From contig NC_057741.1 of assembly GCF_004010195.1 (NCBI RefSeq), forward strand, positions 35,156,202 to 35,220,201: a DNA stretch of 64,000 nt, given 5' to 3'. Positions within the stretch are counted from its first letter, which is position 1. Each line of letters opens with the position of its first letter. The translations under genes and the position numbers were made by a program. The notes below the pieces were generated by a model, which made no database searches, had not been told where the DNA came from, and worked only from the letters and a program-made list of their open reading frames with translations. This document shows, one piece after another, positions 5,870 to 54,619 of this stretch. The DNA is from Chiloscyllium plagiosum. Its lineage: Eukaryota.

Positions 5870-7925
5870 GACTAATTGCATGCCAAACAGCATAAGCAAC
5901 AAGTGATAGATTGAGCTAAGTGATCCCATTACCCACAGGTCAGATCTAAGTCCTGCTACATCCAGTTGTGTATGGTGCTGCACAAGTAACACTTAGGAGA
6001 AGGTTCTACAAATATCCCCGTACTCAATGATTCAAGAGTTCAAAACACAAGTGCAAAAGATAAAGCTGAAGCGTTCGTAGCAATCTTCAGCCAGAAGTAC
6101 CAAGTGATTGATCCATCGCTGCCTCCTCCAGTGGTCCTCAGCATTATTGATACTAGTCTTCAGCCAATCAGTTCACTCCGTGTGATAACGAGAAATGGTT
6201 GGAAGGACTAAATACTGCAAAGATTGTAGGCCCTGTCAACGTTCTGGCCATAATACTGAAAATTTGTATTTCAGAACTTGTCACTGTCCCAGCCAAGCTG
6301 TTCCAGAACAGTTACAACACTGGCATCTACCCGATAATGTGGAAAATGTCCTGTACATACAGCAGAGCAAATCCAACCCAACTAATTACTGTCTCATTAG
6401 TCTACTTTCAATCAGCAGTGAAATGATGGAAGGTATCATCAACAGTGCTATTAAGTGGCACCTGCTCAATGATGCCCAGTTTGAATTCTGCTACTGCCAC
6501 TCAGCTCCTGACCTCATTACAGCCTTGGTTCAGACATGGACGAAAGAGCTAAATGCCTGAGGGGAGGTGGGAATGGCAGTCCTTGACCGAGTGTGGTATC
6601 AAGAAACTCCAGCAGAACTGGAATCGATAGATATCAGGTCAAACTCTTCACTTGTTGGTGTCATACCTAGCACATCGGAGATGGTTGTGGCTGTTGGAAG
6701 TCAGTCATCTCAGGTCCCAGACATCACAGCAGGAATTCCTCAGCGTAGTGTCCCAGGCTCAACCACCTTTGTCTGCTTCACCAATGACCTTCCCTCCATC
6801 ATAAGGTCTGAAATGGATATATTTGCTGATGATTATACAATGTTCAGCACCATTCACGAATCCTCAGATATTGAAGCAGTCTATGTTCAAATGCAACAAA
6901 ATCTAAACAATATCCAGGCTTGTGCTGAAAAGTGACAAGTAACATGCATTCCACACAAAACCAGGCAATGATACCTGTAATAAGAGACAATTTAATCTTA
7001 ACCCCTTGACATTCAATGGTGCTACCATCACTGAATCCCCAAACATCAACACCCTTGGGTTACCATTAACCAGAAATTCAACTGGACTTGTCACATAAAA
7101 GCAGTGGCTACAAGAGCAGGCCAGAGGCTCGGAATACTGTGGCAGGTAACTCGGCACTGACTCCCCAACATCTTGGAGGAGAAAGTGAGGACTGCAGATG
7201 CTGGAGATCAGAGCTGAAAATGTGTTGCTGGAAAAGCGCAGCAGGTCAGGCAGCATTCAAGGAACAGGAGAATCAACGTTTTGGGCAATAAGCCCGTCTT
7301 CAGGAATGATTCCTGAAGAAGGGCTTATGCCCGAAACGTCGATTCTCCTGTTCCTTGGATGCTGCCTGACCTGCGCTTTTCCAGCAACACATTTTCAGCT
7401 CCCCAACATCTTGTCCCACTGACAAGGCGCAAGGCAGGAGTGTGATGGACTACTGTCCACTTGCATGGGTGAATGCAACTCCAACAACACTCAAACGCTT
7501 GACACCATCTCGGTTAAAGTAGCCCACTTTGTTTGGCATCACTCCCTCCATCACTAATGTTCAGTAACACCAGTATGTACTATCTACAAGATGCATTGCA
7601 AAAATTCACAGAAGATCCTTAGACAGCATCTTCCAAATCCACAGCAACTTCTGTCAAGAAGGATAAGGACAGCAAATACATGGGAACACCATCTACAAGT
7701 TCCCCTTCAGGCCATCATCGTCATGACTTAGAAATGTATTGCTGTTCCTTCACTGTTGATGGGTCAAAATGCTGGAATTTCTTCCCTAAGGGCATTGTGG
7801 GTTAACCTAGAACATTTGGACTGCAGCGGTTCAAGAAGGCAGCTCACTACCACTTTCTCAAGGGCAACAAGATATGGGCAATAGACGTGCTGGCCAGCCA
7901 GTGATGTCCATTTCCCACAAGCAAA
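5870..7925 (+). mobile_element. Decayed LINE (RT-encoding, CR1/L2 group) distinct from the main CR1 family
   Basis: Broken RT frames: 'PTNYCLISLLSI', 'AGIPQRSVPG', 'FADD'. Confidence 0.8.
7176..7398. mobile_element. Fold-back PLE-terminus element with hammerhead core (+ strand 7313-7340)
   Basis: Flanking repeat CTCCCCAACATCTTG (7161-7175 / 7399-7413); imperfect inverted arms; CTGAAGAAGGGCTTATGCCCGAAACGTC. Confidence 0.8.
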
Positions 7926-11480: not shown

Positions 11481-13612
11481 AGGCTACCTGGAATTCATAT
11501 TTAAACTCCTGTTGTGCACCAGTTCAAATGCTGTCAGTTAGGAGCCCTTCAAAGTTGCAGTGTGTTAATATCTCCCCAGAGTTGACACCCCACTTTGTCA
11601 ACAGGTACTTTAGATTCTTGTTGGATGGGGTGCTGGACAGGGAAGTTAACTTCTCCAAGATCACAAGAGGGACACATGGCATTAGGCCATGCCACCCGGG
11701 TCACTGGAGTTCACACAGTTCAGACGAACATCCAGTACTGCAGAGGCAAGTTAGTAATTTTGTGTGCTCTTTGAGGATCAGTACTACCATTATCTTTCTA
11801 TTGCCATCGCACACTCTCACTCTAATTCACCTACTGTACCCACCTCCTCCCAAGGATTATGTTCTACCACTGTTGCCACTGCATTGTGTAGTAACTTCCC
11901 TTTTGTTGTGCTTGCCACTGTTGCTCTACCACACCCCTACCCATTTGCTAATCCTATATGCCCCCACTACACTGCACACTCAATTACCTCAGACACCTCT
12001 CCCACTGTCCCACATCTACACTAAGCATTAATAACAACACTAGCCACTTTCACCTCAATTAATCTTTCTTTTTGTTTCATTCCAGGAGAAGCATCCCAAA
12101 ATAGTTAGAAGATGGGTGGTTGGTGCCCAGTATATGTCACCTCACCCCCCCCCCCCCACCACCAAAAAAAACCCACCACCACCAAACTAGCTCAACAGTG
12201 ACACCATAGTGAATTTGTGAGCTAGAGTATAATAGGGAGCACATCACAGCACCTAGTGGAGAAAGAAGTGCTTAATTTGCTGGCATTCAGAGCTGCGAGA
12301 TAATAGGAACCTGATATGCCCCAGGAAGGAGAGACTATCATTTGTAACTTTATCCAATGCACAAGGAGGCACAGAAGCAGTAGGTGGTTTACCAGGCATT
12401 TGGTAAGCTGACAAGTTTGAGGAGTTCACCAATACTCTATATATCGTGCTTCCTCTAGCATGCCGCCATAGAAAACCAGATCCAGTTTGCTGGGTATATA
12501 CACAGACCCCATCTGCCATAGTTCGATTTGAACCTTTTTCAAGATCATTCATCTGTGGTTCTGGGTTACCAGTCTAGTGACATTGCCACCACCCCATTTC
12601 CTCGCCATACCAACAAGATGAGGGAACTTGATCCTATTTCAAATGTTCTTCCTTCACAAGGAGACAGGGTAGTACAAGCTGGCACCCAGCAGAGGAGCAA
12701 CTTTACAACCCCTGCAAAAGTCTTCCCTCAAGATAGTTAATAAGTGCCCAAGCCTTTCCTCTCCCTCACTCCCCACAATATCCAAGAAAGGCAAGATTGA
12801 ACAGTATGAAGTGAGCTGTTCCAGAATTTTTTTTGTTGGGACCCTTGAAATGTAATTGCTACTTTTGCATTTGGGAAGAGTCTTACCAGCCTCATTACAG
12901 CCATTAGTATGATTGGTTTGTAGTGTTGAATGATGTGGTCAAGAGTACTTGTGGCCAGGATTTTTAGTTGACACAATAGCTCAATTCTTGAGATCCACTT
13001 AGAGCATTTTGTGATAATAGATACCCTTCACCTATACGATGGGGTGTCTTTGTAATTCTGTTGCTCTTTGAAGGGCCTCACATCACACAAATGGAGCCAA
13101 CTATAGAGGATAAAAACATGAACACTGCCAACCGTTTTCATTTCAATGTGTTTGAGGATGAAAGGAAACACAGGTTGCACTTCAAAGCACAAGATGCAGA
13201 CTCAGCCTTTCAGTGTATGTAACTCCCGCAATCTTCATGTTCCTTTCTTCCTTGTCTTCCCTGTCAACCCCATTTTGCCTTGATGATCCCCACAATTTTA
13301 TGCAGATTGTCTTATTTAACTGCTCATCTCATCTTCTCAAACCACCTTGTGAGAGGCGCTTGCAAATGTTGTTTCTGCAAAAATCACAAGGCTGAATCGT
13401 GAGGGGGGTGTATGTTAAGCTAGTTATGCTTGCACAAACAGCTGCTAGTAGCTGCATCTTGCGATGTCTGCAGAAGCAAGGCAGAATCATGAGGATGATT
13501 ACCAAGAAATAGCTAACCAAAAAGGGAGGTGGTTGACTGGTAGAAACAGATGTATTGACATGACAGTTGCAAAGGTCACTTACTCAGTGTTGCGTCAGCA
13601 TAAGTAATGAGA

Positions 13613-14254
13613 TCAAAGTTTGTGCGAAGATTTGTAGCTCGGGTGCTCGTTGTTGTGGTTCTGTTCGCCGAGCTGGAAGTTTTTGTTGCAAACGTTTCGT
13701 CCCCTGGTGAGGCGACATCATCAGTGCTTGGGAGCCTCCTATGAAGCGCTTCTTTGATGTTTCCTCCGGTGTTTATAGTGGTCTATCCCTGCCGCTTCCG
13801 GTTGTCAGTTTCAGCCGTCCGCTGTNNNNNNNNNNNNNNNNNNNNNNNNNNNNNNNNNNNNNNNNNNNNNNNNACATCAACTAGCCACGAAACGACACAA
13901 CCAGCTATCCTTAGTAGCCACACACGCAGACAACAAGCAACATGAATTCGACTGGGACAACACTACTATCATAGGGCAAGCCAGACAGAGAACAGCCAGG
14001 GAATTCCTAGAGGCATGGCATTCATCCACAAACTCCATCAACAAACACATCGACCTGGACCCAATATACCAACCACTACAACGGACACAGCTGAAACTGA
14101 CAACCAGAAGCAACAGGGACAGGCCACTATAAACACCGGAGGAAACATCAAAGAAGCGCTTCGCAGGAGGCTCCCAAGCACTGATGATGTCGCCTAGCCA
14201 GGGGACGAAACGTTTGCAACAAAAACTTCCAGCTCAGCGAACAGAACCACAACA
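13613..14254. mobile_element. Second Penelope-like family, inverted arms around an assembly gap, hammerhead cores on both strands
   Basis: TSD ATAAGTAATGAGA (13600-13612 / 14255-14267); remnant HEFDWDNTTIIGQARQRTAREFLEAWHSSTNSINKHIDL; CTGATGA-T-GTC..GAC-GAAAC-GTT at 14181-14214 (+) and about 13688-13727 (-). Confidence 0.8.
13826..13873. other. Assembly gap (48 N)
   Basis: N run at the centre of an inverted repeat. Confidence 0.99.
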
Positions 14255-14747
14255 ATAAGTAATGAGACTCCGATATCAAGGGGTGGGGGTGGGGGGTTGC
14301 ACGCTAACAACAGTCCACAGAAGATGTGGTAAACCGATTAGATTAGTAATTGCACAGAGCAATACAACTATCACGTATGAGGTAAAAGGAGAGTACCGAG
14401 AGACTCAGCTGAACTGTATAAATTGTAATGTAACCTTTTGATCGGGGTGCCTACTTGTTAGACACTTGTCTTGCAAGAACATTTCATTAAAATTCGCTGC
14501 TTCAGAATTTGACTCTGACTGAAATGTATTGATATGTGAGCTTTGTTTCTCACAAATGTCCACCTACTGCTCCCTGGTGTTGGTCCCGGTCCCACATCTT
14601 AATCATGTACCAATCATTCACATCTTCTCACATAACCACCCATGCTCCTTGAAGTCAAGGTTGTGGTAACTGTTGATAGCACTCACATCTACAGTTTCCC
14701 TTGTGTCCCATCTCTTGTTTCTCACCATTTTACATTAATGGCTGCAT

Positions 14748-18099: not shown

Positions 18100-19340
18100 T
18101 AGAGTCATAGAGATGTACAGCACGGAAACAGACCCTTCGGTCCATCTCATCCATGCTGACCGGATATTCCAACCTAATCTACGTCCATTTGCCAGCCCAT
18201 ATCCCTTTAAACCCTTCCTATTCATATACCCATCCAAATGCCTTTTAAATGTTGCAATTGTACCAGCCTCCACACTTTCATTGACAGCTCATTACATATG
18301 TTCACCACCCTCTACTTGAAGAAGTTGCCCCTTAGGTCCCTTTTACACCTTTCCCCTCTCACCCTGAACCGATGTCCTCTCGTTCTGGACACCCCCACCC
18401 CAGGAAAAAGAATTTGTCTATTTATCCTATCATGCCCATCATGATTTTATAAACCTCTATAAGATCACCCCTAAGCCTTCAGCCCTCCAGGGAAAACAGC
18501 CCCAGCCTATTTAACTTCTCCCTATAGCTCAAATGCTCCAACCCTGGCAACATCCTTGTAATTCTTTTCTGAACCCTTTCAAGTTTCACAACATCCTTCC
18601 AATAGGAAGGAAACCAGAAATGCGCGCAATATTCCAAAAACGGCCTAACCAATGTCCTGTACAGCCGCAACATGGTCACCCAACTCCTATACTCAATGCT
18701 CTGATCAATAAAGAAATGTATACCAAACGCTGCCTTCACTATCCTATCTACCTGTGACTCCACTTTCAAGGAGCTATGAACCTGCACTCCAGGGTCCCTT
18801 TGTTCAGCAACACTCCATAGCACCTTACCATTAAGTGTGTAAGTACTTCTAAGATTTGCTTTCCCAAAATGCAGCACCTCGCATTTATCTGAATTAAACT
18901 CTATCTGCCACTCCTCAGTCCATTGGCCCAGCTGATCAAGATCCTGTTGTAATCTGAGGTAACCTTCTTCGCTGTCCACTACACCTCCAATTTTGGTGTC
19001 ATCTGCAAACTTCCTAACTATATCTCCAATGTTCATATCCAAATCATTTATATAAATGATGAAAAGTAGGGGACCCAGCACCGGTCCTTGTGGCATTCCA
19101 CTGGCCACTGGCCTCCAGTCTGAAAAACAACCCCCACCATCACCACCCCCTGTCTTCTACCTTCGAACCAGTTCTGTATCCAAATGGCTAGTTCTCCCTG
19201 TATTCCCTGAGATCTAACCTTGGTAACCAGTCTTCCATAGGGAACCTTGTTGAACCCTTTACTTAAGTCCATGGAGATCGTGTCCACTGCTCTGCCCTCA
19301 TCAATCATCTTTGTTACTTTTTCAAAAAACTCAATCAAGG
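18100..19340 (-). mobile_element. CR1/HER1-like LINE fragment (RT)
   Basis: 209-aa ORF with PQGPVLGPLLF and KFADDTK. Confidence 0.9.
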
Positions 19341-20192: not shown

Positions 20193-21770
20193 GTGAGTTA
20201 TGCAATTGAATATCCCACTTTTTTTCTTTTCTAAATGCAAACTGTGTCCCAATTTCAGTTAGTTTGCCATCTAGTAGTATTGGAAATAAAAGTTGACTAC
20301 ACAGAACAGAAATGTTTTTCCATATACAAAGCTCTTTATTTAAATTCTGTATTCTCTTGGACCCCATATTCCATGAGAATGTATGTTCTCTTGAGGAAGC
20401 TTACGAGGTGGAATTGCTTTGCATTGAAAACATGGCAGGATTGTAGCTACCTCCCAGAAATTAAATGACACAAGGGTGCATTTGAAGGTGGATGCCATTT
20501 TATTGGGACTGGTCTAAAAAGAAGCAGATTTTAAGATAGTGTAAAAATAGTAAGTTGGGGATTTAAACTTTCTCAATATTAACTGGGATAGACAAAGTGT
20601 AAAAGGCTTAGAGGGGTCATAATTTTTAATGTGTCCAGCAGAACCTTGTAAGCCAGGATGTAGAGTGTCTTACAAGAAAGAGGGCCATTCCATGCCTGCC
20701 ACTACATAGGAAGCTCCAGCCGGAGCTCACCTGCTCTGCCCATTCTTCTTTTTTTTTTCTTCCCCTCAGTGCTTCTCTTCTCCTTCTTCTCCTCCTTTAT
20801 CCCTCTTTGACTTCTGGCCTCCAGCGAGTGACAATTCCTGGCCTGGCACAATGGCCTCCCAGCGTAATAACCTTCCGCAGCGGCCCCCTTGTAAGGTGCA
20901 GTGACCCGACCTGGCACAGCAGCCTCCTGGCATGCCATATTGTCAGTGTGGTATGGAGCCAGGTCCCAGTGTGGACTGGAAGTTAGATGCCAGCATGGTC
21001 AGCTCTGCTGAACATTTATTTCTGTTATGCTAGACCATTTTATTTTCTGTATTTTCTACATCTTGTAGCAAACAAAACTGTGCCTCGGTACTTTTTGTAG
21101 CTAAGCTGTTGCTGTAATTGGCTACGTATAAACGTTTGACTATACTCAGAGTATTTGTGACAGTGAAGGCTGTCTGTTCTTCTATTCTGATTTTCGGGAA
21201 CAAAGCTAGATAAGTAGTGGAAGTTCAGTGGAGAGCGTTTCAGTGATGATGACCATAATCCTTGCTGGTTATGGTAATCATGGAAAAGGACAAGGATGAA
21301 TTGGAAATAAAGGTTCTGAATTGGGGGCAGGTTGATTTTAACATAACAGGTTCTGACTGAAGTGAACTGGGAGAATCTACTCATGGGAAAATCTGTCAGC
21401 AATTGGAGTCTTTCAAAATGGGGCGATGAATGATAGGACCATATGAAGTACAGTTGATCAGAGGCCCTGATATGTCTATATTCCCAGATTCTTGAAAGCA
21501 ATAAATCAGGTGGTTGAAAAAACATATGGGATACTTAACTTTGGGGTGAAGCACTGAATATAAAGCAGCAAAGTTATGATGGAGCTGTATACCATAGTAG
21601 TTAGTTTGCGGATGCAGTATGGTGTGCTGTTTTGGGTGTCTCACAATTGGAAAAATATGATTGCTTTAAAAAGGTTGCCAAAGAAATTTGCCAGTATGTT
21701 CCCTGGGCAGAAATCTTTCACATATGAAGAAAGACTGACTAGGCTGGGGTTGTTTTTGTTTGAGCTGAAA

Positions 21771-23250
21771 ATGTGTTGCTGGAAAAGCGCAGTAGGTCAG
21801 GCAGTATCCAAGGAGCACGAGAATCGACTTTTAGGGCATGAGCCCTTCTTCACAAATGAGGAAAGTCTGCTAAGCAGGCTAAGATAAAAGGTAGGGAGGA
21901 GGGACTTGGGGGAGGGGTGTTGGAAATGCGATAGGTGGAAGGAGGTTAAGGTGAGGGTGATAGGCCGGAGTGGGGGTGGGGGCAGAGAGGTCAGGAAGAA
22001 GATTGCAGGTTAGGAAGGTGGTGCTGAGTTCGACGGTAGGGACTGAGACAAGGTGGAGGGAGGGAGAAATGAGGAAACTGGAGAAATCTGAGTTCATCCC
22101 TTGTGGTTGGAGGGTTCCTAGGCGGAAGATGAGGCGCTCTTCCTCCAACCGGCGTGTTGCTATGGTCTGGCGATGGAGGAGTCCAGGACCTGCATGTCCT
22201 TTGTGGAGTGGGAGGGGGAGTTGAAGTGTTGAGCCACGGGGTGGTTGGGTTGGTTGGTCCGGGTGTCCGGGGAGGGGAGGGAAATATATCCCTGGTGGTG
22301 GGGTCTGTTTGGAGGTGGCGGAAATGACGACAAATGATACGATGTATATGGAGTTGGTGGGGTGGTAGGTGAGGACCAGTGAGGTTCTGTCCTGGTGGCG
22401 ATTGGAGGGATGGGGGGGCTCAAGGGTGGAGGAGCGGGAAGTGGAGGAGGAGCAGTGGAGAGCATCGTTGACCACATCTAGGGGGAAATTGCGGTCTTTG
22501 AAGAAAGAGGCCATCTGCGTTGTTCGGTATTGGAACTGGTCCTCCTGGGAGCAGATGCGGCGGAGACGAAGGAATTGGGAATATGGGATGGCGTTTTTAC
22601 AGTGGGTAGGGTGGAGGAGGTGTAGTCTAGGTAGCTATGCGAGTCGGTCGGTTTATAGTAAATGTCCGTGTTGATTCGGTCGCCCGAGATAGAAATGGAG
22701 GGGTCTGGGAAGGGGAGGGAGGAGTCTGAGATGGTCCAGGTAAATTTGAGGTTGGGGTGGAAGGTGTTAGTACAGTGAATGAACTGTTCAACCTCCTCGT
22801 GGGAGCACGAGGCAGCGCCAATACAGTCATCGATGTAGCGGAGGAAAGGGTGGGGGTGGTGCCAGTGTAGCTGCGGAAGATGGACTGTTCCACATATCCT
22901 ACAAAGAGGCGGGCATAGCTGAGGCCCATGCGGGTGCCCATGGCTACTCCTTTATTTTGGAGGAAGTGGGAGGATTGGAAAGAGAAGTTGTTCAGAGTGA
23001 GGACCAGCTCAGTCAGTCAAAAGAGGGTGTCAGTGGAAGGGTACTGGTTGGTACGACTGGAAAGGAAGAAGCAGAGGGCTTTGAGTCCTTCGTGATAGGG
23101 GATGGAGGTGTATAGGGACTGGATGTCCATGGTGAAGATAAGGCATTGGGGACCGGGGCAGCGCAAATCCTGGAGGAGGTGGAGGGCGTGGGTGGTGTCC
23201 CGGACGTAGGTGGGGAGTTCTTGGACTAAGGGGGACAGGCCCGTGTCGAG
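21771..23250 (-). mobile_element. Penelope-like retroelement (RT and GIY-YIG remnant), 5'-truncated
   Basis: ORF remnants MGTRMGLSYARLFVGYVE (RT), MASFFKDRNFP and RLEEERLIFRLGTLQPQGMN (endonuclease C-terminus); its 3' end is the same sequence as the short elements. Confidence 0.85.
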
Positions 23251-23845
23251 GACCTCAAATTTACCTGGACCGTCTCAGACTCCTCCCTCCCCTTCCTAAA
23301 CCCCTCCATTTCTATCTCGGGTGACCGAATCAACACGGATATTTACTATCAACCGAATGACTCCCACAGCTACCTCCCACCCTGCCCACTGTAAAAACGC
23401 CATCCCATATTCCCAATTCCTTCGTCTCCACCCCATCTACTCCCAGGAGGACCAGTTCCAATACCGAACAACCCAGATGGCCTCTTTCTTCAAAGACCGC
23501 AATTTCCCCCCAGACGTGGTCGACGATGCTTCCCACCACATCTTCTCCACTTCCCGCTCCTCTGCCCTTGAGCCCCGCCCCTCCAATCGCCACCAGGACA
23601 AAACCCCACTGGTCCTCACCTACCACCCCACCAACTCCATATACATCGTATCATCCATCGTCATTTCCGCCACCTCCAAACGGACCCCACCACCAGGGAT
23701 ATATTTCCCTCCCCTCCCCTATCAGCGTTCCGAAAAGACCACTCCCTCTGTGACTCCCTCGTCAGGTCCACACCCACCAACAACCCAACCTGCACTCCCA
23801 GCACCTTCCCCTGCAACTGCAAGAAATGCAAAACTTGCGCTCACA
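23251..23845 (+). mobile_element. Inverted partial copy of the adjacent Penelope-like element
   Basis: Begins as the reverse complement of about 22270-22751; encodes KNAIPYSQFLRL...MASFFKDRNFP. Confidence 0.85.
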
Positions 23846-24395
23846 CTCTCTCTCTCTCTGAGACTGAGGTCAACAAAACTAGTAGAGACAAAGGTAGGTT
23901 AGATAAGAAGAAATGCCCTTTTTTATAGAGGAGCCAGTAAACAAGGGACGTGGATTTTAAGATGGGACTGGAGGAAGAATTTATTCACCCAGAACTCCTT
24001 GCCTGAAAGGGTGGTGGAAGCTGGAATCATCAGAGCATTTTAAGAAGTAGTTGATCTTTTGAAGTACTATATCAAACAGGTTTATGGGCCAAGTGCTGGA
24101 AAAATGAGACTAGAGCGGATAGGTGCTTGATGATTGTGTGGACATAATGTGCTGAAAATTGTAAAACTTGTGACTCTAAAAAGAATAATGTACTAATCAC
24201 GCAACATCCAATCTTCTCTAATTCTATCCTTCATTCCCTGCCGCCCTTTTTTTTAGAAAAGGCTTTATATGATTGTTATCTGTTTCAGAGAATGCCAACT
24301 GTAAGCTAGCATTTCCAGGGTTTTGCCTTGCCTGTCTTCAAAATTGCTGTAGATGTTGTTAAATTTGCCCTAATCTGAATTTCTTTGTTTTTAAG

Positions 24396-24457: not shown

Positions 24458-25221
24458 CATTCAGCCGCACTTTTCTACATCCTCCATAAGCATCGTTGTG
24501 TTAAGTCAACGAAATTCTACGTGCAACACAACTCTGAGAAAGAATGTATAATGTAATTGGAACTAGTGAAATTGTCAATTAACAAACATTTTTTATTGTA
24601 TGTGATGGAATGTGCAGTTTTTAATGAAAAAATAGGAGTGGGGACTAATGTATGAGAATAATGAGAATTTGTCATATTAAAACACTAGAAATAAATTTCC
24701 ATGTGTATTAATATTGTATTGCTGTAGTTCCACTTATAAGTAGGCTGTACTGAAACAGCATGATAAAACATTGGTACTATAGCATTACAATTCAACATTT
24801 TCTGTCCTCCTCCAAAGTCTTTTTTCATGTTTACAATTATTTTGTCAGACCAGGCTACTTTTTATGTGCTAATTCTATTTTGGCCTATATTCCTCAATTA
24901 ATTGGCTATAAAGAGGAATACATTGCTCATCGGAATCCTAAACAAAGAAAATGTTCTGAACCTATCAGATGTAAATTTCATTAATAAATCCTTAAGGAGT
25001 GAAGAGAGGTTTCTCAATTTGTGGTCATTTTTAAGATTTCTATGGACTTCTTAACTTCTAACCTGCGTGTTGTCCCAACAGTTGGATTTTTTTTTATTTC
25101 TCAGGTTTGTGTTGCTTTGTGTATTCATGATAGTGATTACTGTACCATCTTTGAAACAATATTTGCTTTGTTTACTTGATCTGTTATATCGTTGCTAGCT
25201 GAAAATGAGAAATTAAGTGCA

Positions 25222-25227
25222 AATAAA
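25222..25227 (+). promoter_or_regulatory. Candidate SMARCAD1 polyadenylation signal AATAAA
   Basis: AATAAA about 770 nt after the stop in AT-rich repeat-free sequence, followed by T/GT-rich sequence; a second AATAAA lies at 24983. Confidence 0.45.
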
Positions 25228-26999
25228 GATTCTGCAGTTTTGAAATATAGGTTCTAGTCCTAAAGATTTTCATTTCTGTTCGCTCTTCTGCTCAGGATCA
25301 TAAGGTGTGTTCTCTGTTGCTGCTTGTTATTATAGGTTGGAATTCCCTCTAATCCACTGATGGAGAAGTAAACCATCAGTTTCTCACCATTTCAAGAAAA
25401 ACTTGGCATGTAAAGTGATCTCTTCCTCACTTTGCTTGATTCCGGTCTGATTTGGATGATTTCCCAGCAACAGTTGTGTTCTTGTTGTCACCCACAGTAG
25501 CATGATAAGCTTTGAGTCTGTGGTGGCTCTGCAAGAGCGACTCACCTGGTGCCATTCCCAAAATGTTTCCATGTAGACCTGTAAATCTTTTCCTTTCATA
25601 TGCTTACCAAATTCCCATTTTAAACGCCAAGACTGAATCTGCTTCCACCACACACGCAATGCAATTCCAATCACTCACTGCATAGAAAGACGTTTCTCTA
25701 ATGTCATCATTGGGTTTTTTGCCATTCAGTTTAAGTTGTGGTCTTCTGGTTCATGACTAGTCTAACAATGGAAACAATTTCTCTATCTGTTCACACTCAA
25801 CCCCTCGTGACTTTGAACACCTCGATTAAATCCTTCAACATTCTTCAGGGAGTACAGTCTTAGCTTTCACAATCTGTCCACATAACTAAAATCACTTGTT
25901 CCTCAAATCTTTTTTTGCATGCTTTCACAGCCTCAAGTATGGTGCTCTGAATTGGGCTCAGTATTGCAGTTGAGGGTCAAACAATGTGTTTTAAAGATCA
26001 TCGTAATTTTATTACTTTAATACATCTGCCTCTATTTGTGAAGTCTAAGATCCCATTTGCCATTTATGCCACATTTCAACCTGCAATCTTGCAAGATTTG
26101 TGAACATTTATGCCCCCACCCCTGCTGTTGCAACCACTTTACAACTGTATCCTTTAGATTATATTGCTTCTCATTCTTCAAAAAAAAGCCACTTCACAAA
26201 TTTCTGCACTAAATTTAACTTATTCTACCAACCTGTTTCTGCCGTCTTAAAGTTTGTTGATGTACTGTTCACATGACTGATTTTTGAGTTCTGTAAATTT
26301 TAAAGTTGTGTCCTATAAGCCCGATAAGCAGAGGTTCTTTGCAGTTCTGAGAGTGTGGGCCTGATCTGAGGCAGGGCTGACTGCAGGGAGATTAGGTGGT
26401 GGCACATGGCTGCGAATGTGGAGCCAAGGATCTGGAAGGAGAACCGCTTCTAAAGGTTTTGAATTTGTAGTAGGCACTGGTTGTCCTGTCCATTGCGGGT
26501 CTGGGAAGATGTGGCCCTGAGCTGTGTTGCGGGTCTGGGAAGAGTGTGGCCCTGAGCGGAGTTGCAGGTCTGGGAAGAGTGTGGCCCTGAAGCCCAAGTC
26601 TAAATCATTTAATACTGTATGCATCAAGAAAGCAGTGGTTCTAATACTGACCTCTTTAGAAATTTGTAACATCCTTGGAGAGAGAATAACAGTTAATGGT
26701 TTGCTTTAGTATGACTCTTTATGAACTGAAAGATATTGGAAAATGTTTTGTATACTTTTGACAGATGTAGAGGAGGAGCAAGAGGCCAAATGGCGTAGAG
26801 TCCCAGTGCAACCCCAGGTAGAAGGATTGTTAATGCTGGTTAGAAAAAAAGAGATGTAAAATTGGTGTAAATTAAGGTGTGCAAGGGAGAAAATGGGTCC
26901 ATTGTTTTTCTCTTAGTTGAGTACTACTGGTGAATTGCTGGAATTTACTAGCACAGTACGTGGTCAAAGCGGAGTTGCTGAATATATTTAAGAACTAGA

Positions 27000-28895
27000 T
27001 TCTAAAGCTCAAGTTGTTAAGAAGTATCAAGTGTAAGAGAATGGTGAGAGATGGACACCTTCATGGCTGATCCTGTATGTTGGAACCACTTGGAAATGGG
27101 TGAGATCCTAAATGAATATTTCTTGTCAGCATTTATGGTGGAGAAAGATGCACAACTTAGGAACTCTGAAGTAATTCGTGATGTCTTGAAAAGAGTCCGT
27201 GTTACAGAAGAGGAGATGCTGGATGTCTTAAAATGCAAGAAGATCGAGAAATCTTTGGGACCTGATCAAGTGTATCCCAGGATTGTGAGAAGGTAGGGAA
27301 GTAATTAAGAGTCCCCGAGCAGAAATATTTGTATCATTGACAGCCTCTGGTGAGGTGCCGGAATACTGGAGGGTGACTAATGTACCATTATTTAAGAAAG
27401 GATGCAAGGAAAAGCTTGGGAATACAGACTGATGAGTGTAATATCAGTGGTGGGTAAGTTGTTCAAGAGATTCGAAGCGACAGGATCCACATGTATTTGG
27501 AAGGGCAAAATCTAATGGGGGATAGTCACCATAGCTTTGTGCATGGGAAATCATGTCCCTCAAATTTGAGTTTTTTAAAGATGACCAAGAAGATAGATGA
27601 AGGCAGAGCAGTATACATTGTCAAATTGACTTTGGACAGGCCTTTGACAAGATACCACATGGTAGATTGGATAGTAAGATTAGATCACATGGGCTGGAAA
27701 TGTGTTGCTGGAAAAGCGCAGCAGGTCAGGCAGCATCCAGGGGCTGGAAATGTGTTGCTGGAAAAGCGCAGCAGGTCAGGCAGCATCCAGGGTGCTGGAA
27801 ATGTGTTGCTGGAAAAGCGCAGCAGGTCAGGCAGCATCTGATCTCCAGCATCTGCAGACCTCACTTTCTCCTCTTAGATCACATGGGATCCAGGGAGAGC
27901 TAACCAGTTGGATACAAAACTGACTTGATGGTAGGAGACATGGATGTTTTCAAGACTGGAGGTCTGTGTTCAGTGATATGCTACAAGATTCAGTGCTGGA
28001 ACCACTATTCATTTATAAAAACAATTTGGATGAGAATATAAGTGGAATGGTTAATAAATTTGCAGATGACACAAATTGGTGGGTTAGTGGACTGTGAACA
28101 AGGTTGTCTAAGAGTACAATGGGTTCTTGATTAACTGGGCTAGTAAGTCAAGGAATGGTGGATGGAGTTTAGTTCAGATAAATGAGATGTTGTATCTTGG
28201 TAAGACAAACCAGAGCAGGACTTAAACAACAGGGCTTTGGGCAGAGTGATGAACCAAAGGGGTGCAGGTACATAGTTTCTTGAAACTGGTGTCACAGGTA
28301 GACAAAAGTGGTGAAGGTGTATGGCATTCTTGTTTTCATCAGTCAGCAATGAGTCCAGGAGTTGGGATGTCATATTTCAGCTGTACAGCACATTGTTAAG
28401 GCCACTTTTGGAATAGAATTCTGGTTGCCCTGCTACAGGAAGGATGGCATCCAACCGGAAAGAATGCAATAAAGACTTAGAGGATGATACTTGGACTGGA
28501 AGGTTTGAGTTCTAAGGATAGGCTGGAACATTTTCTTTTTCCTGGAGTGTAAGAGCTTAGGGGGTGACCTTAAGAGGTTTATAAAATCATGAGGGCCATC
28601 GATAAGGTGAATAGCCAAGGTCTTTTCCCCAGGTTAGGAGAGCCCAAAACTAGGGGCCATAGGTTTAAGTTGAGAGGGGACTTGAGGGGCAACTCTTTCA
28701 TGCAGAGGGTGGTGCCTTTATGAAATGAGTTGGCAGAGGAAGTGTTGGTAAAATTAGAAATTTGGACAGATACATGATAAAAGGTTTAGAAGGGTATAGA
28801 CCCAAACACATGCAAATGGAACTGGTTCAGTTTAGGAAACCTTGATGGCATAGATGAGTTAGGCCGAAGGGCCTATTTCCATGCTGTGAGACTCT
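27000..28895 (+). mobile_element. CR1/HER1-like LINE, decayed
   Basis: 'GEILNEYF', 'GPDQVYPR', FADD and the CR1 3' tail. Confidence 0.85.
27694..27873. mobile_element. PLE-terminus insertion with three tandem ~50-bp units plus inverted end, inside a CR1 LINE
   Basis: TSD TTAGATCACATGGG (27680-27693 / 27874-27887). Confidence 0.8.
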
Positions 28896-31801
28896 TAAAT
28901 CACATTGAGTGGTGGAGTGGCCCTGATGGGCTGACTCCTTCTGTTTTCAAATACAAGGATGCAAAGCACACATTTAGCATCTGAACAAAACCATCCACCT
29001 CTTTGTTTAGATCCCCTTTATGATCCCTAATTGACTCCATCTTTTTATCGTTTTGCTATTTCAATGTCAAGAGAATGCTTTTAAATTTTAATATTAGATT
29101 CCAGTTTCTCACCATCTCATGGCTTACTTCCTTATCGCTTTCTTAACTTTTTATGTTCAATCATATTCTTTGTATTATGAATTGACGTCTGTGTTTAGCA
29201 CCCTTTTTATCCCTTTCGTTGGTGTAGGTTTTTCAGTGACTATTTAGAGGAGTTCTCACAGTTTACTAAATGCCCTATTTTAATTCATCTTTGTGGATAA
29301 AATTGACAGTCCAGAAATGAGAAAATACCTTTTCAGGACCAGTGAAAGGATTGAACAATGATTACAAAGTTAGTCATTTCAAAGCTATTCAACAAGGTGT
29401 GGCTTTTGCTTGGGTTCTTACGTCAAGATTAATAACATACAAATGGAAGTATTTGTTCAATTGTTATTGCAACTTTATTGCAGATTGCATCTCTAAAGCA
29501 AAGCTTTGGCGGCGTGTAGAGTGACTTTGGATGTGTGCATATGGATTTCCAATGCTGCTGACTGCTGCAGTGATGGTGGTGGTGGTGAACAGGCAATTTT
29601 GTCGTATTTACCACTAAAACTCTGGCCCATTCATAATGTTTAAAAAGCCATCAACAGTCTTCTTTCTCTAAAGATAAACTATTTTAGAATCATAATTCCT
29701 ACAGTGTGGAAACAGGCCATTAGTCCACACAAGTCCACACTTACCCTCTGAAGAATAACCCACCCTATTACCCTGTAAACTCTTAGTTTAGACATTAAAT
29801 GCCTTGGATGAAGAAGCATATTTAATTTAGCAGTGTTCATTTAAAGATGGTGGCATTACCTTATTTTAGTAGAAAATGATGTCATGCATTTTCAGACTGG
29901 TAAATTCTTTGTGAATACTTTAAATATCCCCACCACTCATTCAGGCATGTTACCAAAAAAACTTTGTTTTATCAATAAATACACATGAATATTAAAATAC
30001 AAGAATTCTTTTTATTTGTTTAATCAGAAATTCAATTAGGCACATCAGGTTTCCCAGTTAGCCATTGTAGCTAATCTGTTACACAGCACTGGTCTAATCA
30101 ATGCTGACATAACAACCATGAGGTATGAAGAAACAGCAGAACAGATTAAGGGATAAGTTCACTAAAGTTTCTAATGGTAGTTTCAAGAAGTATCTGAGGC
30201 AGACCCAGTTATTCCTTTCAAGGATTCTTTACTTGAGGCTATGAGGCCAAAGCAACAAATTGGGATTTTTTTTAAAATACTCTTTCATTATTCATAATAT
30301 GACTAAATTTGCTTTTGGGGCTTTTGAACCGTACTCTTTTTTTTCCCCCCATTATTTAATGTTTTTTAGTTGGTTCTACAACATCATATTTACTGTCCCA
30401 TGATATTTTCCCAACTCCTTGATAACTCCATTTCAAATAAGCTTCTGGTTCTACTAGATCTTTATTAAACCCATTCTCTTTATCTCGTCCCAAACCTAAC
30501 CTTTAATCTGCCCCCACCATTTAGTTTCCCCTCCACCAGCAGCAATTGATTCCTTTTATTTCATTATATCCTTTCAGTTATTCCAGAGCTCACTCTGATG
30601 ATCTAATAATGCAACCCTTCCTCCTTTGACTTCCCACATAGCAACACATTGATGACTACCATGAAACCCCTCCTCCCAGATAGCACAAAACTGGGTAAAG
30701 ACTATCACCCTTCAGCTCTTTATTTTCTTCTCTAAATTAACCCCTCACGTTTCTTTAAACTCCCTCTAAGACCTTAAAATACTTCTATTTACAATACTTG
30801 TTTCAACCAACCCTTGGCTGCTCTCCTATTCCCAGATATTTCCTGGTCTGTTTTATAGAATCAGTTACTCTGTCTCTGGGTGGGCAGCATGCCATTTGCA
30901 ACTTCTGGCTCTGATTGGGGGATAAATAATCCTGACAACATTGGTCCTGTTCTACCCAAAGAGACTTCTAACCAACCAAAAAGCAACAAACTGCAGTTGC
31001 TGGAACTTAGTTCTGATGAAGTCACTGGCCTCAACCTTTTTTTCTCCACAGATGCTGCCAGTCCTGCCCTGCTGAGGTTTTCCAGTAATTTCTGTTTTTA
31101 CTTCTCACCAACCTGTTAGGGCACAGCTTTGGAGCAGGTGGGACTTGAAACTAGGCTATCTGATCCAAAGGTAGGGGTATTACCATTGCACCACATGAGC
31201 ATTCTCAATTTCACACAACACATTACAGTAATGATTAAAGCCAAGTGCTAATTAACACAAGGACAGAAGTAGGCCATTCAACTCCTTTAAGCCTGTGTTG
31301 GCATTTGATGAGACCATGACTGATCTTTGACTTCATTTACACAACTTGGCTCCATGTCCCATAGTAACGTTATTGAGCAAAGTCTATCCACCTCTGTTAT
31401 GGCACTTCCAACCACTCCTTGTCCTCAATTTCAAGAATTTTGAGGCATGATTTCTACTGCCCCTTGTGCAAAGGAAGTACTTCCCGACAACCCAAACAAC
31501 TTAGCTCTAACTTTAAGCATATGCTCCTTCATGTCTTGCTTTCTGTCCTATCACAGCCTATAATTATTAAACATCGCTACTCAATCCTCCATTAACCCAT
31601 GAGAATACAAGCTTAACCCATGCAGCCTGTCCATGTCAAAAGGTTAACAAATGAGAAACTTAAGAGTTTATAGACTTGAAATCTATAAAACATATTACAG
31701 ACCCAGGACTGTTATTGGAAGTAATGGTTAAAGAATTAAACCAGTTTAGAAAATAAGGTTTCATTTCATGTTCTAGGCACCTTTAACTGAAGGCTGTAAT
31801 T

Positions 31802-33779: not shown

Positions 33780-34552
33780 TGTCCTCCATCTTGTTTACTC
33801 ATATTGAACAATCTCTCTTTTAACTTGCCTCACTTTTTTCAAATAAGGTACAACTATCACTACTCCTATGGGCCCTAGTCATGCCTGTCTTTTTGCAAGC
33901 TATATATGGGCACTTGACAGCTTTCTGCATTCAAAATTGAGTTTAACTTCAACCCGTTTAAATTCGTCCTTCATTTTGATATCACCCACCCCTCACCCTG
34001 TTTCTGTATCTTGTTTTCATGGTCTTACATTAACTCACAGTTCATCTTTGTTCTGCCATTAACACCTTCAGTAGAAAAATGAGGGGGAGTTTTTTATAGA
34101 AATCTATAAAATTCTAACAGGACTGGACAGGGTAGATGCAGGAAGAGTGTTCTTGATAATTAGGGAGTCCAGAACCAGGGATCACAGTCTAGCGATATGA
34201 GGTATTATTACAGAGATGGGGAGAAATTTCTTCATTCAGAGAGAGTGATGAGCCTGTGGAATTCTATGCTACAGAAAGCAGTTGATTAACACCTACTTTG
34301 GATGTAAGTCTTGTCTTTTCCACAATCATTACTATTCCCTTTATCTTCCATTTGACGACACCTTGGATCTCATATCTCTCTTAATACTTCCCTGCCCTGC
34401 CTGTCATTCCACTTGCAGTCTCCTTTCCAAGAAGTATAAAATTCATGATGTTTCCACCTCCATTAAGTTCTGAAGAAGTCATATTACAATTGAAACATTG
34501 ACTGTTTCTCTCTCCACAGATGCTGCCAAACCTGCTAAGATTCTCTAGCAGT
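33780..34552 (+). mobile_element. Highly decayed Penelope-like element interrupted by a CR1 fragment (about 34095-34285)
   Basis: MGPSHACLF RT-motif remnant; CTGAAGAAGTC...GAAACATT near the 3' end. Confidence 0.45.
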
Positions 34553-34570
34553 TGGTTCTTAATTAGAGAT

Positions 34571-34700
34571 TAGATTAGAGTGGTACTGGAAAAGCATGTC
34601 AGGTCAGGCAGCATCCGAGGAGCAGGACCTGCTGTGCTTTTCCAGCGCCACTCTAATCTAGACTCTGGTTTCCAGCATCTGCAGTCCTCACTTTTGCCTA
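34571..34700. mobile_element. Fold-back PLE-terminus element lacking the central hammerhead
   Basis: TSD TCTTAATTAGAGAT (34557-34570 / 34701-34714); inverted arms. Confidence 0.75.
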
Positions 34701-35307
34701 TCTTAATTAGAGATGTCTTTTCTCACTGCAAATTTCCATGACAATGCCTCCTGCCGGTCTCAGCACCTTACAGCAGTGAAACACAAACTCTTGAAAAGAT
34801 GCTCTGTAATTGGAAAAGTGGGAGGCTATAACATTTCGATATCCAGAAGCTCTGAACAAACTGCATTGAAATATGTCTTCAAACAAGAAATCTTCCAATT
34901 TCTTATTTCCACTAGGCCATTCTTTCACATCTTATCCTGCTGAAGGCATTGTTTTGAAAGTAGGGTTATGAGCACGGAGGCTAAATAATTATGAAAATGA
35001 TATTGCCTCATTGTGAAATATCCATTTTAAATAATTGATACGAAATTGGCTGCCTTCTGCTGAGATCCAATAGGTTAAGATTTCAGCACAGATAAAGAAA
35101 GGTTAACACATTACTTTCTGAGACAGGAAAATGGAAGTCTACTTTTTATAGTGTTCGAACTGTTTCACAAACTCAGTGTCCTCAACGTGCTTTACAATAA
35201 GTGACGTATTATTAGAGTTGCTATTGCGATGTAGGAACTATGGCAGCTAACTTGCTCATACATAGCTCCCACAAATAGAAGTGTGGTGCATACATGCATA
35301 TATATAT

Positions 35308-46339: not shown

Positions 46340-47310
46340 TGTAAAAAAGTTGCCCATCAGGTTCCCTTTTATTCCTTCCCCTCTAACCTTTAACTGATGT
46401 CCTCTAGTTCTCCATTCCCAACCCTGGGAAAAAGACTGAGTGCATTCACCCTATGCACGCCTCTCAAGATCTTATACACTTAGAGTCATAGAGATGTACT
46501 TCTGGAAGATTCCTTCTCAGTCTCCTACACTATAAAGAAAACAGTCCTAGCTTGTCCAGCCTCTCCCTATAACTTAGTCCCTTGATTCCTGGCAATATCC
46601 TTGTAAAGTTCTTCTGCATGTTTTCCAGTTTAGTAACATCCTTCCTATACCAAGGTGACCAAAGCTGAATAAAATACTCCAAGTACGCCCCCACGAATGT
46701 CCTGTACAACTGCTACATAACTTCCCAACCTCTATACTCGATGTCCTGACTGACGAAGGTCAGTGTGCCAAAAGCTTTCTTCAATTCCCGCCTCAGGCGA
46801 CTGACTGTGTGGAGTTTGCACGTTCTCCCCGTGTCTACCTGTGACTATACTTTCAGAGAACTGTGCACCTGAACTCAAAGATTCCTCTGTTCTATTACAC
46901 TCCTTAAGACACTACCATTCATCAAGAAATTCCTACCTTGATTTGACTTTCCAAAATGCAAGACCTCACACTTATCTATATTAAATTCTATTTGCCATTT
47001 CTTGGCCCACTTCCCCAGCTGGTCAAGGTCCTGCTGCAATTTCTGATAACCTTCTTTACTTTCCACGATACTGCCTATCTTAGTATCATCTGCAAACTTA
47101 CTAATCGTACCTTGTACATTCCCATCCAAATTATTAGCACTGACCCCGTGACACTCCACTAGTTACAGGCCTCCAGTCGCACAAGCATCCTTCCACTATT
47201 ATCCTCTGCTTCCTACCATCAAGCCAATTGTGTATCCAATTTGCCAGTTCCCCTCAGATTCCATGTGATCTAACCTTCTCGAGGAGCCTACCATGTGGAA
47301 CCTTATCAGA
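46340..47310 (-). mobile_element. CR1-like LINE fragment with small SINE/LINE-tail inserts
   Basis: 'SKFADDTKIG...LQQDLDQL'. Confidence 0.85.
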
Positions 47311-53064: not shown

Positions 53065-53412
53065 AAGGAGAGGTGATGGCCTAATGACATTATTGCTGGA
53101 CTATTAATCCAGAAACTCAAGGTAATGTTCTGGGATCTTGGGTTCAAATCCTGCCATGGAAAATGGTGAATTGGAATAAAAGGGAAAAATTGTGAGTCTA
53201 ATGATGACCATGAATTGATTGTTTGGAAAAAAAACCCATCCAGTTCACTAATGTCCTTTAGGGAAAGAAGCTGCCACCCTTGTGTAATCTGGCCTACATG
53301 TGACTCCAAACCTTGAGGACTGTGGTTGCTGCTTATCTGCCTCTGAGTAGTTAAGGATGGCAATAAATGCTGATGGAGCCAGCAACACCCTCATCCCATG
53401 AATGAATTAAAA
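53065..53412 (+). mobile_element. Second tRNA-derived SINE family
   Basis: GGTTCAAATCC B box; tail GGCAATAAATGCTG...CATCCCATGAATGAAT resembling the 3' end of the LINE at 5870-7925; another copy at about 54620-54972 (-). Confidence 0.65.
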
Positions 53413-53750
53413 GTAAATAATGGAGCCAATTGAAAAAGAGAGAGAGAGAAATAAACTGAGCAAAAACATTTGCAGGAGGATAGTGTAAAGCATTATTTTT
53501 ATTAAGAAGCCTAGCAATAACCTATCTAAATAGTTATTATATGTACATTAGATCTGACACATTCATTTGACTTCTGTAACTCAATAGGATGGAGAATACA
53601 GTTAAACTAGTTGGCTTAATGGAACATATGTATAATAATAATTGTGACAGTCAGTCAGTCATTAAGCACGTGAGAGACCTTTATATCTCAAAATCACCTA
53701 AAATGATGTTAAAGAGGCTGTTACTCTGATTCTTTGGACATTGTACCTGG

Positions 53751-53977
53751 TTGAAACTTTATTGCTGGAACAGCACAGCAGGTCAGGCAGCATCCAGGGA
53801 ACAGGAGATTCGACGTTTCGGGCACAGGCCCTTCTTCAGGAAATGAAGATTCCTGAAGAAGGGCCTGTGCCCGAAACGTCGAATCTCCTGTTCCCTGGAT
53901 GCTGCCTGACCTGCTGTGCTGTTCCAGCAATAAAGTTTCAACTTTGATCTCCAGCATCTGCAGACCTCACTTTCTCC
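53751..53977. mobile_element. Short fold-back Penelope-derived element with 13-bp TSD
   Basis: TSD ACATTGTACCTGG (53738-53750 / 53978-53990); perfect 93-bp inverted repeat 53750-53842 / 53850-53942. Confidence 0.85.
53847..53886 (+). ncRNA. Minimal type I hammerhead ribozyme motif (PLE type)
   Basis: AGAUUC-CUGAAGA-A-GGGC(CUGU)GCCC-GAAAC-GUC-GAAUCU: 6-bp stem I, intact core, 4-bp stem II, palindromic ACGU in place of stem III; predicted cleavage after C53880. Confidence 0.75.
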
Positions 53978-54619
53978 ACATTGTACCTGGGAATCATTTA
54001 CATGGATTCTGAAACGCTTCCAAATATAACAGTGATGGAGGGGTATTAAAGTGTGCTGCTATTCTTCTTACTAATTTGGGTTACAAAAGTTAAAATTGAT
54101 GGGAAATTCCTCCTTCCGTTCAAGAAAATACAGTGAATTTCTTCCACATACACCGGAGGGAGTTAATTAACTACTTTTATTCACTCATGGGATGTGGGCA
54201 TCACTGCCTGGGCCAGCATTTAATGCCCATCCCTAGTTGCCATTGAGAAGGTGGTAGTGAGCTGCCTTCTTGAACTGCTGCTGTAGATAGACCCACAATG
54301 CCATAACGGAGGCAAGTCTAGATCTTCAGTCTTATACACTTCCAGCTAATCCATGAAAGACTGGAGATTTCAGAATGGAAAGGGAGAGGACCATGCCTAT
54401 ATTTCAAGTTCTCAATTTGAATTCAGAACATCAATAAAAAACAGTTGGCAGAGCATCTCTGTAAAAGGGCTAAAGGAAATAACCTTCTCGACAGCAATTT
54501 CCCATTTTTCTATCTCAGATTTTACAGTTTTTAATCCCTGCTGACAGACAGGAAAAGACAAAAAACTGAGAGAAGTTCTCCCACTGAAAGGTGAAAGGTG
54601 AGAAAAGGCATTGTACTGA

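Follow-up and report, generated by a model that had tools for sequence, protein, structure and literature searches.

A perfect palindrome that carries a minimal hammerhead motif on each strand raises the question of whether it is an element in its own right, spread as a hairpin with a working ribozyme, or a by-product of the way in which a larger retrotransposon inserts. We addressed this question for the insertion at 53.8 kb (53738-53990) of a 64,000-nt stretch of DNA, hereafter called the window. The reading that we favour, with a probability of roughly 0.8, is that the insertion represents the terminal repeat of a Penelope-like retrotransposon, comprising the hammerhead-bearing pLTR and the tail, and that its mirror arm was likely built during integration and not copied from a palindromic master.

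The insertion and its parent family

The insertion is composed of two 93-nt arms that are exact reverse complements of each other (100%), a 7-nt loop between them, and a 35-nt tail on the right side only, and 227 nt separate the two copies of the 13-bp repeat that enclose it (Table 1). The coordinates that had been assigned from the letters alone to the 227-bp insertion, its 13-bp TSD, its identical inverted arms and its loop were all borne out, and the ribozyme core was likewise placed correctly, while the unpaired A53860 and the one-sided tail had been overlooked. The whole insertion, ~240 bases, contains no ORF and consists of two pLTR pieces and the tail; its hairpin fold has a predicted energy of -203.7 kcal/mol (z = -27.9 against 200 shuffles). 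The end of the tail at 53977 is a sharp 3' boundary throughout the family, beyond which 256, 183 and 263 contigs and 363 reads continue into unlike flanks.

Table 1. Features of the 53.8-kb insertion and of related copies in the window. Junction positions are counted from core C3 = +1, and arm ends were read by eye.
Feature	Position	Strand	Remark
Left TSD copy, 13 bp	53738..53750	+	single copy in the relative's empty site
Inverted tail-less Penelope-like pLTR (hammerhead motif and ~60 nt)	53750..53842	-	first base common to the TSD
Minimal hammerhead motif	53812..53839	-	C3 at 53839, C17 at 53812; three contiguous pairs in the natural stem I
Junction loop, likely part of the left arm	53843..53849	-	antisense match to the natural leader
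Minimal hammerhead motif	53847..53886	+	putative cut after C53880; stem I probably in part junction-made
Sense pLTR copy (right arm)	53850..53942	+	exact complement of the left arm
One-sided tail, 35 nt	53943..53977	+	53977 is the family-wide 3' boundary
Right TSD copy	53978..53990	+	identical to the left 13-mer
Decayed long parent copy: RT motifs, thumb, endonuclease end, 3' UTR	21761..23251	-	ends in hammerhead-pLTR
Inverted body segment	23252-23719		adjoins the 21761-23251 copy
Second decayed long copy: cysteine-rich linker, GIY-YIG-like segment	14874..15905	+	ends in hammerhead-pLTR
Older palindromic copy	7178..7400	-	tail, 15-bp duplication, different centre
Junction, 53.8 kb	tail-less arm -10 / tailed arm -3
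Junction, 7.2 kb	tail-less arm -4 / tailed arm -6
Junction, 10.3 kb	tail-less arm +11 / tailed arm -7
Junction, 46.2 kb	tail-less arm -6 / tailed arm +2		12-nt inverted stub only
Junction, 61.6 kb	tail-less arm +2 / tailed arm -6

All of these components have been published for Penelope-like elements, and so have pairs of minimal hammerheads on opposite strands. For the EN+ elements, Arkhipova et al. 2013 (PMC3846280) and Craig et al. 2021 (PMC8557442) report the same head-to-head inverted pLTR, a TSD (13 bp here), a short junction palindrome and an optional one-sided tail of 30-40 bp, to which the 35 nt on one end correspond here; these elements are described as longer units with some solo pLTRs, whereas no ORF lies between the repeats of the 53.8-kb insertion. 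The minimal hammerheads of metazoan Penelope-like elements, as reported by Cervera and de la Pena 2014 (PMC4209133), include opposite-strand pairs 100-700 bp apart, in contrast to the 13 nt observed here, as well as solo motifs from truncated elements. Our literature search found no description of this shark family, which Repbase or Dfam may well contain.

BLAST and an anchor search together detected 15 related loci in the window, 13 short and 2 long, with three more distant relatives (31.0, 34.5 and 50.1 kb) excluded from the family counts. The same pLTR ends both long loci, which are RT/GIY-YIG remnants, and the earlier description of the insertion as non-coding and Penelope-derived was upheld. 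Against Pfam, these decayed copies give weak matches that miss the cut-off (RVT_1, E 0.015; GIY-YIG, E 0.038), and the five longer Penelope-like frames give none. The RT piece had 49 homologs among 224 candidates (best E 1.8e-62), with a Chiloscyllium punctatum protein at the top (83% identity) and shark and ray proteins next, which makes a shark, probably a carpet shark, the likely host; PF01541 was found in 2 of the 49, and a GIY-YIG-type domain forms the end of the full-length relatives. Translations near 15.2 kb and 23.8 kb and the full-length homologs P0027 and P0029 share a CX2-5CxxC linker motif, reported to be common to the RT-EN linkers of Neptune and Nematis (PMC8557442), which points to a parent of the Neptune or Nematis type. 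Within 21761-23900, the first long copy also contains a head-to-head inversion in its RT region at 23251, where the inverted part shares 89% identity with its counterpart and terminates in a brief run of dinucleotides.

The Penelope-like family is an abundant repeat. In each of three runs, 25,000-31,500 contigs map to the 1.1-kb stretch around the insertion, over which the summed depth, which is no copy number, peaks at the element and at a second repeat near 54.2 kb.

Junctions and a possible route of integration

An inverted piece is present in 8 of the 13 short loci, and an exact flanking duplication of 10-15 bp in 7 of the 13. All five inverted copies that reach the ribozyme differ in their centres, with overlaps of 0-3 nt. 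Two of them (53.8 and 46.2 kb) have the longer leader on the tail-less arm, and three (7.2, 10.3 and 61.6 kb) have it on the tailed arm. The inverted loci at 27.7, 34.6 and 41.9 kb have their centres downstream and lack the ribozyme, and further different centres made up 14 of the 15 joints listed (of 15 + 414). Later deletions at hairpin tips could have produced such varied centres. The non-inverted loci start at -4 (33.0 kb), -5 (42.8 kb), approximately +2 to +4 (2.6 kb), approximately -2 (62.6 kb) and +39 (11.0 kb), and those at 33.0 and 42.8 kb have the same ends and TSDs as the inverted ones. Overall, the 5' boundaries of 9 of the 13 short loci fall between -10 and +12, and none lies at the cut site (+29). 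The RNA reads over the family showed no pile-up of starts or ends.

Read in antisense, the loop of the 53.8-kb copy agrees with the leader of the 15.9-kb copy in 6 of 7 positions; read in sense, it agrees in 0 of 7. The agreement with the leader of the 21.8-kb copy is 6 of 7. Moreover, in two runs the loose ends before 53849 (39 contigs and 173 reads) carry a leader that is rich in pyrimidines and does not resemble the loop.

Most probably, the mirror arm arises during insertion, when two cDNAs are joined head to head. The RT-endonuclease of the element, supplied in trans, would nick both target strands 13 bp apart, and each nick would prime a cDNA on element RNA, starting at the pLTR end (+90) for the left nick and at the tail end (+125) for the right nick. 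Near the front edge of the ribozyme (here at -10 and -3) the two cDNAs would stop before being joined, and the stop would be set either by the RNA 5' end as a run-off or by a leader/core fold-back that stalls or folds the cDNA. Anatomy, insertion status, the link to the family and the variety of junctions are observed, and the joining of two cDNAs, the cause of their stop and the absence of cleavage are inferred; for the mechanism we draw on five junctions read by eye, three of them decayed and one (46.2 kb) with a mere 12-nt inverted stub. The main-family leader around -4 conforms to the initiator consensus YYANWYY. Combined with the internal promoter reported for Drosophila Penelope (PMC2377424), this initiator-like leader suggests that the cDNAs may run off the RNA 5' end.

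In vitro work by Frangieh et al. 2024 (PMC11167929) on PAc, a Poseidon element from Anolis, describes the nicking and extension of both target strands, two sites of RT initiation that delimit the tail, and a ribozyme that needed protein and was dispensable, its mutants still being inserted. These properties would fit the ends observed here, but the two-start-site biochemistry is that of a lizard element of the Poseidon clade, a different clade from the parent here with its cysteine-rich Neptune/Nematis-type linker. A bolder reading, with the odds somewhat against it, takes the stubs as a fossil record of Penelope integration, in which the nick-primed cDNAs from the two RT start sites would each run off uncut RNA starting at an initiator-like motif just upstream of the ribozyme, before being joined head to head. 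One mechanism would then account for the inverted arm, the one-sided tail and the TSD, and the ribozyme would not cut the template in vivo.

A second route, which shares the same origin, is counted within our confidence in that origin and differs only in the joining step, has been proposed in PMC3846280: a single cDNA would fold back at the leader/core palindrome, prime itself and so generate the mirror arm. The natural leader indeed pairs with the core strand in a hairpin of 6-7 bp (-4.2 to -7.9 kcal/mol as DNA), the left arm of the 53.8-kb copy ends exactly where this hairpin ends (53849), and the 46.2-kb and 61.6-kb copies are joined through a 3-nt overlap inside it. However, the extra leader at 53.8 kb sits on the tail-less arm, from which a fold-back cannot template the sense tail, and the junction retains 10 nt that would be missing after a clean fold-back. 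With its leader on the tail-less arm, this junction separates the joining of two cDNAs from simple self-priming, and we consider the latter possible but doubtful.

The single insertion matters little, being a clean copy of a repeat that is very abundant and has a known layout and type of ribozyme. Its value lies in the intact junctions as a record of Penelope integration, since the origin of the inverted arm and the role of the hammerhead in Penelope-like elements are presented as open questions in PMC8557442 and PMC11167929. A shark family of very high copy number would allow the integration model to be tested by a junction census alone.

The hammerhead motif and its predicted fold

On the plus strand, the core CUGAAGA (53853-53859) is separated by the unpaired A53860 from stem II (53861-53864/53869-53872), which is followed by GAAA-CG-UC at 53873-53880 with the palindromic ACGU at 53876-53879, and stem I (53847-53852/53881-53886) closes with six pairs. 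The features of a minimal type I hammerhead are thus present, namely CUGANGA, GAAA and UH, an extra nucleotide after A9, G10.1-C11.1 and palindromic positions 15-16; the extra unpaired nucleotide after the core is reported as a conserved trait of minimal hammerheads (PMC4209133). The same core on the minus strand, which had been described as having a weaker stem I, was also found, with three contiguous stem I pairs. A strict minimal-hammerhead descriptor, a scan suggested by the sequence-only reading, gave five matches in the window and none in 60 resampled windows, which places the motif beyond chance, while an Rfam search of the window yielded no matches at E<=1. In a separate pattern scan of metagenomes, nine loci were recovered with matches of only 22-25 nt and no wider likeness, and we dismissed them as chance.

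The 6-bp stem I of the plus strand, which had been credited to the ribozyme, is probably only in part its own. All six pairs are there, but the outer three are contributed by the loop, and the antisense match of the loop to the leader, together with the pyrimidine-rich leader found elsewhere, indicates that these three are likely a product of the junction. The natural stem I has three contiguous pairs on the minus strand and two in three other copies, compared with a helix I of 4-5 bp in the minimal hammerheads of Penelope-like elements; stem II likewise has 4 bp here versus the 7-8 bp reported for Schistosoma (PMC4209133). We rejected the idea that the three extra pairs are the footprint of an RT jumping onto a cleaved RNA end, as their chance occurrence is 1/64 and the copy had been picked for its looks. 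At 53883, most family copies carry a T that creates a U-U mismatch in stem I (62% of the summed depth in the same-species run and 93% in that of the relative), so that a stem I of 2 bp seems to have accompanied the spread of the family.

Over 11 arms in the window, 93% of the stem II cells are paired and 54.5% of those of stem I, but stem II shows no two-sided, compensatory changes and no pairing excess over shuffles (256/500), so the close copies lend no covariation support. Among the 40 of 79 rows listed, the common variants affect two positions of loop II (53865 and 53867) and one of stem I (53883).

Folding predictions suggest that the ribozyme is shut. Forcing the entire element into the hammerhead fold costs +60.8 kcal/mol relative to the hairpin, and P(stem II) is ~4e-19 at all ten nascent lengths modelled over the two strands, in agreement with the earlier proposal that the hairpin sequesters the ribozyme. 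The antisense arm is transcribed first in either direction, and read-through RNA is accordingly predicted to pair arm with arm first, leaving the hammerhead of the 53.8-kb copy as a passenger. In the presence of the natural leader, the leader is predicted to pair with the core instead, with a probability of 0.0 for the closing of stem I. The only form predicted to fold stems I and II (P 0.975 and 0.999) is an RNA that starts in the loop, and it would still need a partner; in the cofold of a dimer, the two units paired through loop II into an inactive duplex, and pairing of the ACGU alone is worth only -3.1 kcal/mol. Self-cleavage from this copy, which had been offered as one of its possible roles, is therefore unlikely on these models. 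For the minimal hammerheads described in PMC4209133, no cleavage of monomers and poor cleavage of dimers are reported.

These predictions bear on the proposal of a dedicated palindromic element, non-autonomous and resembling a MITE or a retrozyme, whose entire hairpin would be transcribed and mobilised and would serve as a regulated ribozyme or a dsRNA source. Its perfect arms, clean TSD and 6-bp plus-strand stem I would suit such an element, as would the frequency of inverted pieces among the short loci, but the ribozyme is predicted to be shut, the five ribozyme-reaching inverted copies have no common centre, and the non-inverted copies at 33.0 and 42.8 kb share their ends and TSDs. The term mini-retroelement, in the sense of an element in its own right, thus was not supported by the comparison with relatives that have other centres or no mirror arm. 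The non-LTR retrozymes described by Li et al. 2026 (bioRxiv 10.64898/2026.07.22.740005) are also non-coding, related to Penelope pLTRs and equipped with a type I hammerhead, and include one cartilaginous fish, but they are defined by direct tandem units with at least two hammerheads, whereas the motifs at 53.8 kb are inverted on opposite strands and no tandem direct units with two hammerheads were found. We therefore consider a dedicated element improbable.

Insertion status, age and surroundings

A 572-nt contig from a run labelled as another species covers 53388-53737 and then continues directly with 53978-54202, and differs from the window at 19 of 575 letters (3.3% divergence), with 4 gaps. 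The single target copy in this empty site identifies the 53.8-kb copy as a true insertion. A contig from the run labelled as the same species matches 53384-53772 without a difference and reaches 22 nt into the element, short of the 31 nt set as the threshold for bridging a junction, and in a second contig run the flank contig stops at 53695, before the junction. An artefact of assembly or fold-back as the source of the perfect palindrome, or a homogenisation of its arms after insertion, is very improbable: palindromes trouble assemblers, that of a second Penelope family in the window has a 48-N gap at its centre, and no contig spans the whole element, but the TSD, the one-sided tail and the relative's empty site are not products of fold-back, and the same-species contig agrees with the window into the element.

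The copy looks the youngest of the five compared, since its arms have 0 of 93 mismatches and those of four other inverted copies 6 to 8. The sequence-only reading had called it very young. The insertion does postdate the split from the 3.3%-diverged relative, but 0/93 limits the divergence of the arms only to <3.2%, about the flank divergence to that relative. At the epaulette shark mutation rate of 7e-10 per base per generation (PMC10587355), which may not be that of the host, this bound corresponds by our own arithmetic to up to ~2e7 generations. The alleles of this copy at 53865 and 53883 account for 24-38% of the summed depth in the same-species run and 2-7% in the relative's, which fits a lineage-specific subfamily.

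In one RNA run, of which ~2% of the reads were sampled, 1476 reads were recovered, 98% of them continuing into unlike sequence and none adding depth on the unique flanks, and the run is uninformative for this locus or for cleavage. A Pfam scan of the 45 frames of at least 75 aa at 40-64 kb (45 of 139 in the window), in which short exons would be missed, gave no convincing host exon; it returned one RT and two weak matches below cut-off. Were hairpins of this kind located in transcribed introns, sharks would have in them a large source of long dsRNA.

Several other loci were noted in the window. At 27680-27887, three tandem 50-nt inverted pLTR pieces without a ribozyme are followed by the tail within a 14-bp duplication, and look like repeated re-priming or slippage in one insertion. 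An inverted stub with a 14-bp duplication at 34470-34714 lies at the end of an older, distant hammerhead-bearing repeat that has distant relatives near 31.0 kb and 50.1 kb. LINE-like RT fragments occur on the minus strand at 18479-19156 and 46878-47162 (Pfam RVT_1, E 6.7e-12 and 1.8e-05). Finally, the second Penelope family (13600-14267) forms a larger head-to-head insertion with a different hammerhead (13724, minus; 14181, plus), and this copy at 13.6-14.26 kb repeats the layout of the 53.8-kb insertion, with arms that are longer, a tail on one side and a duplication of 13 bp.
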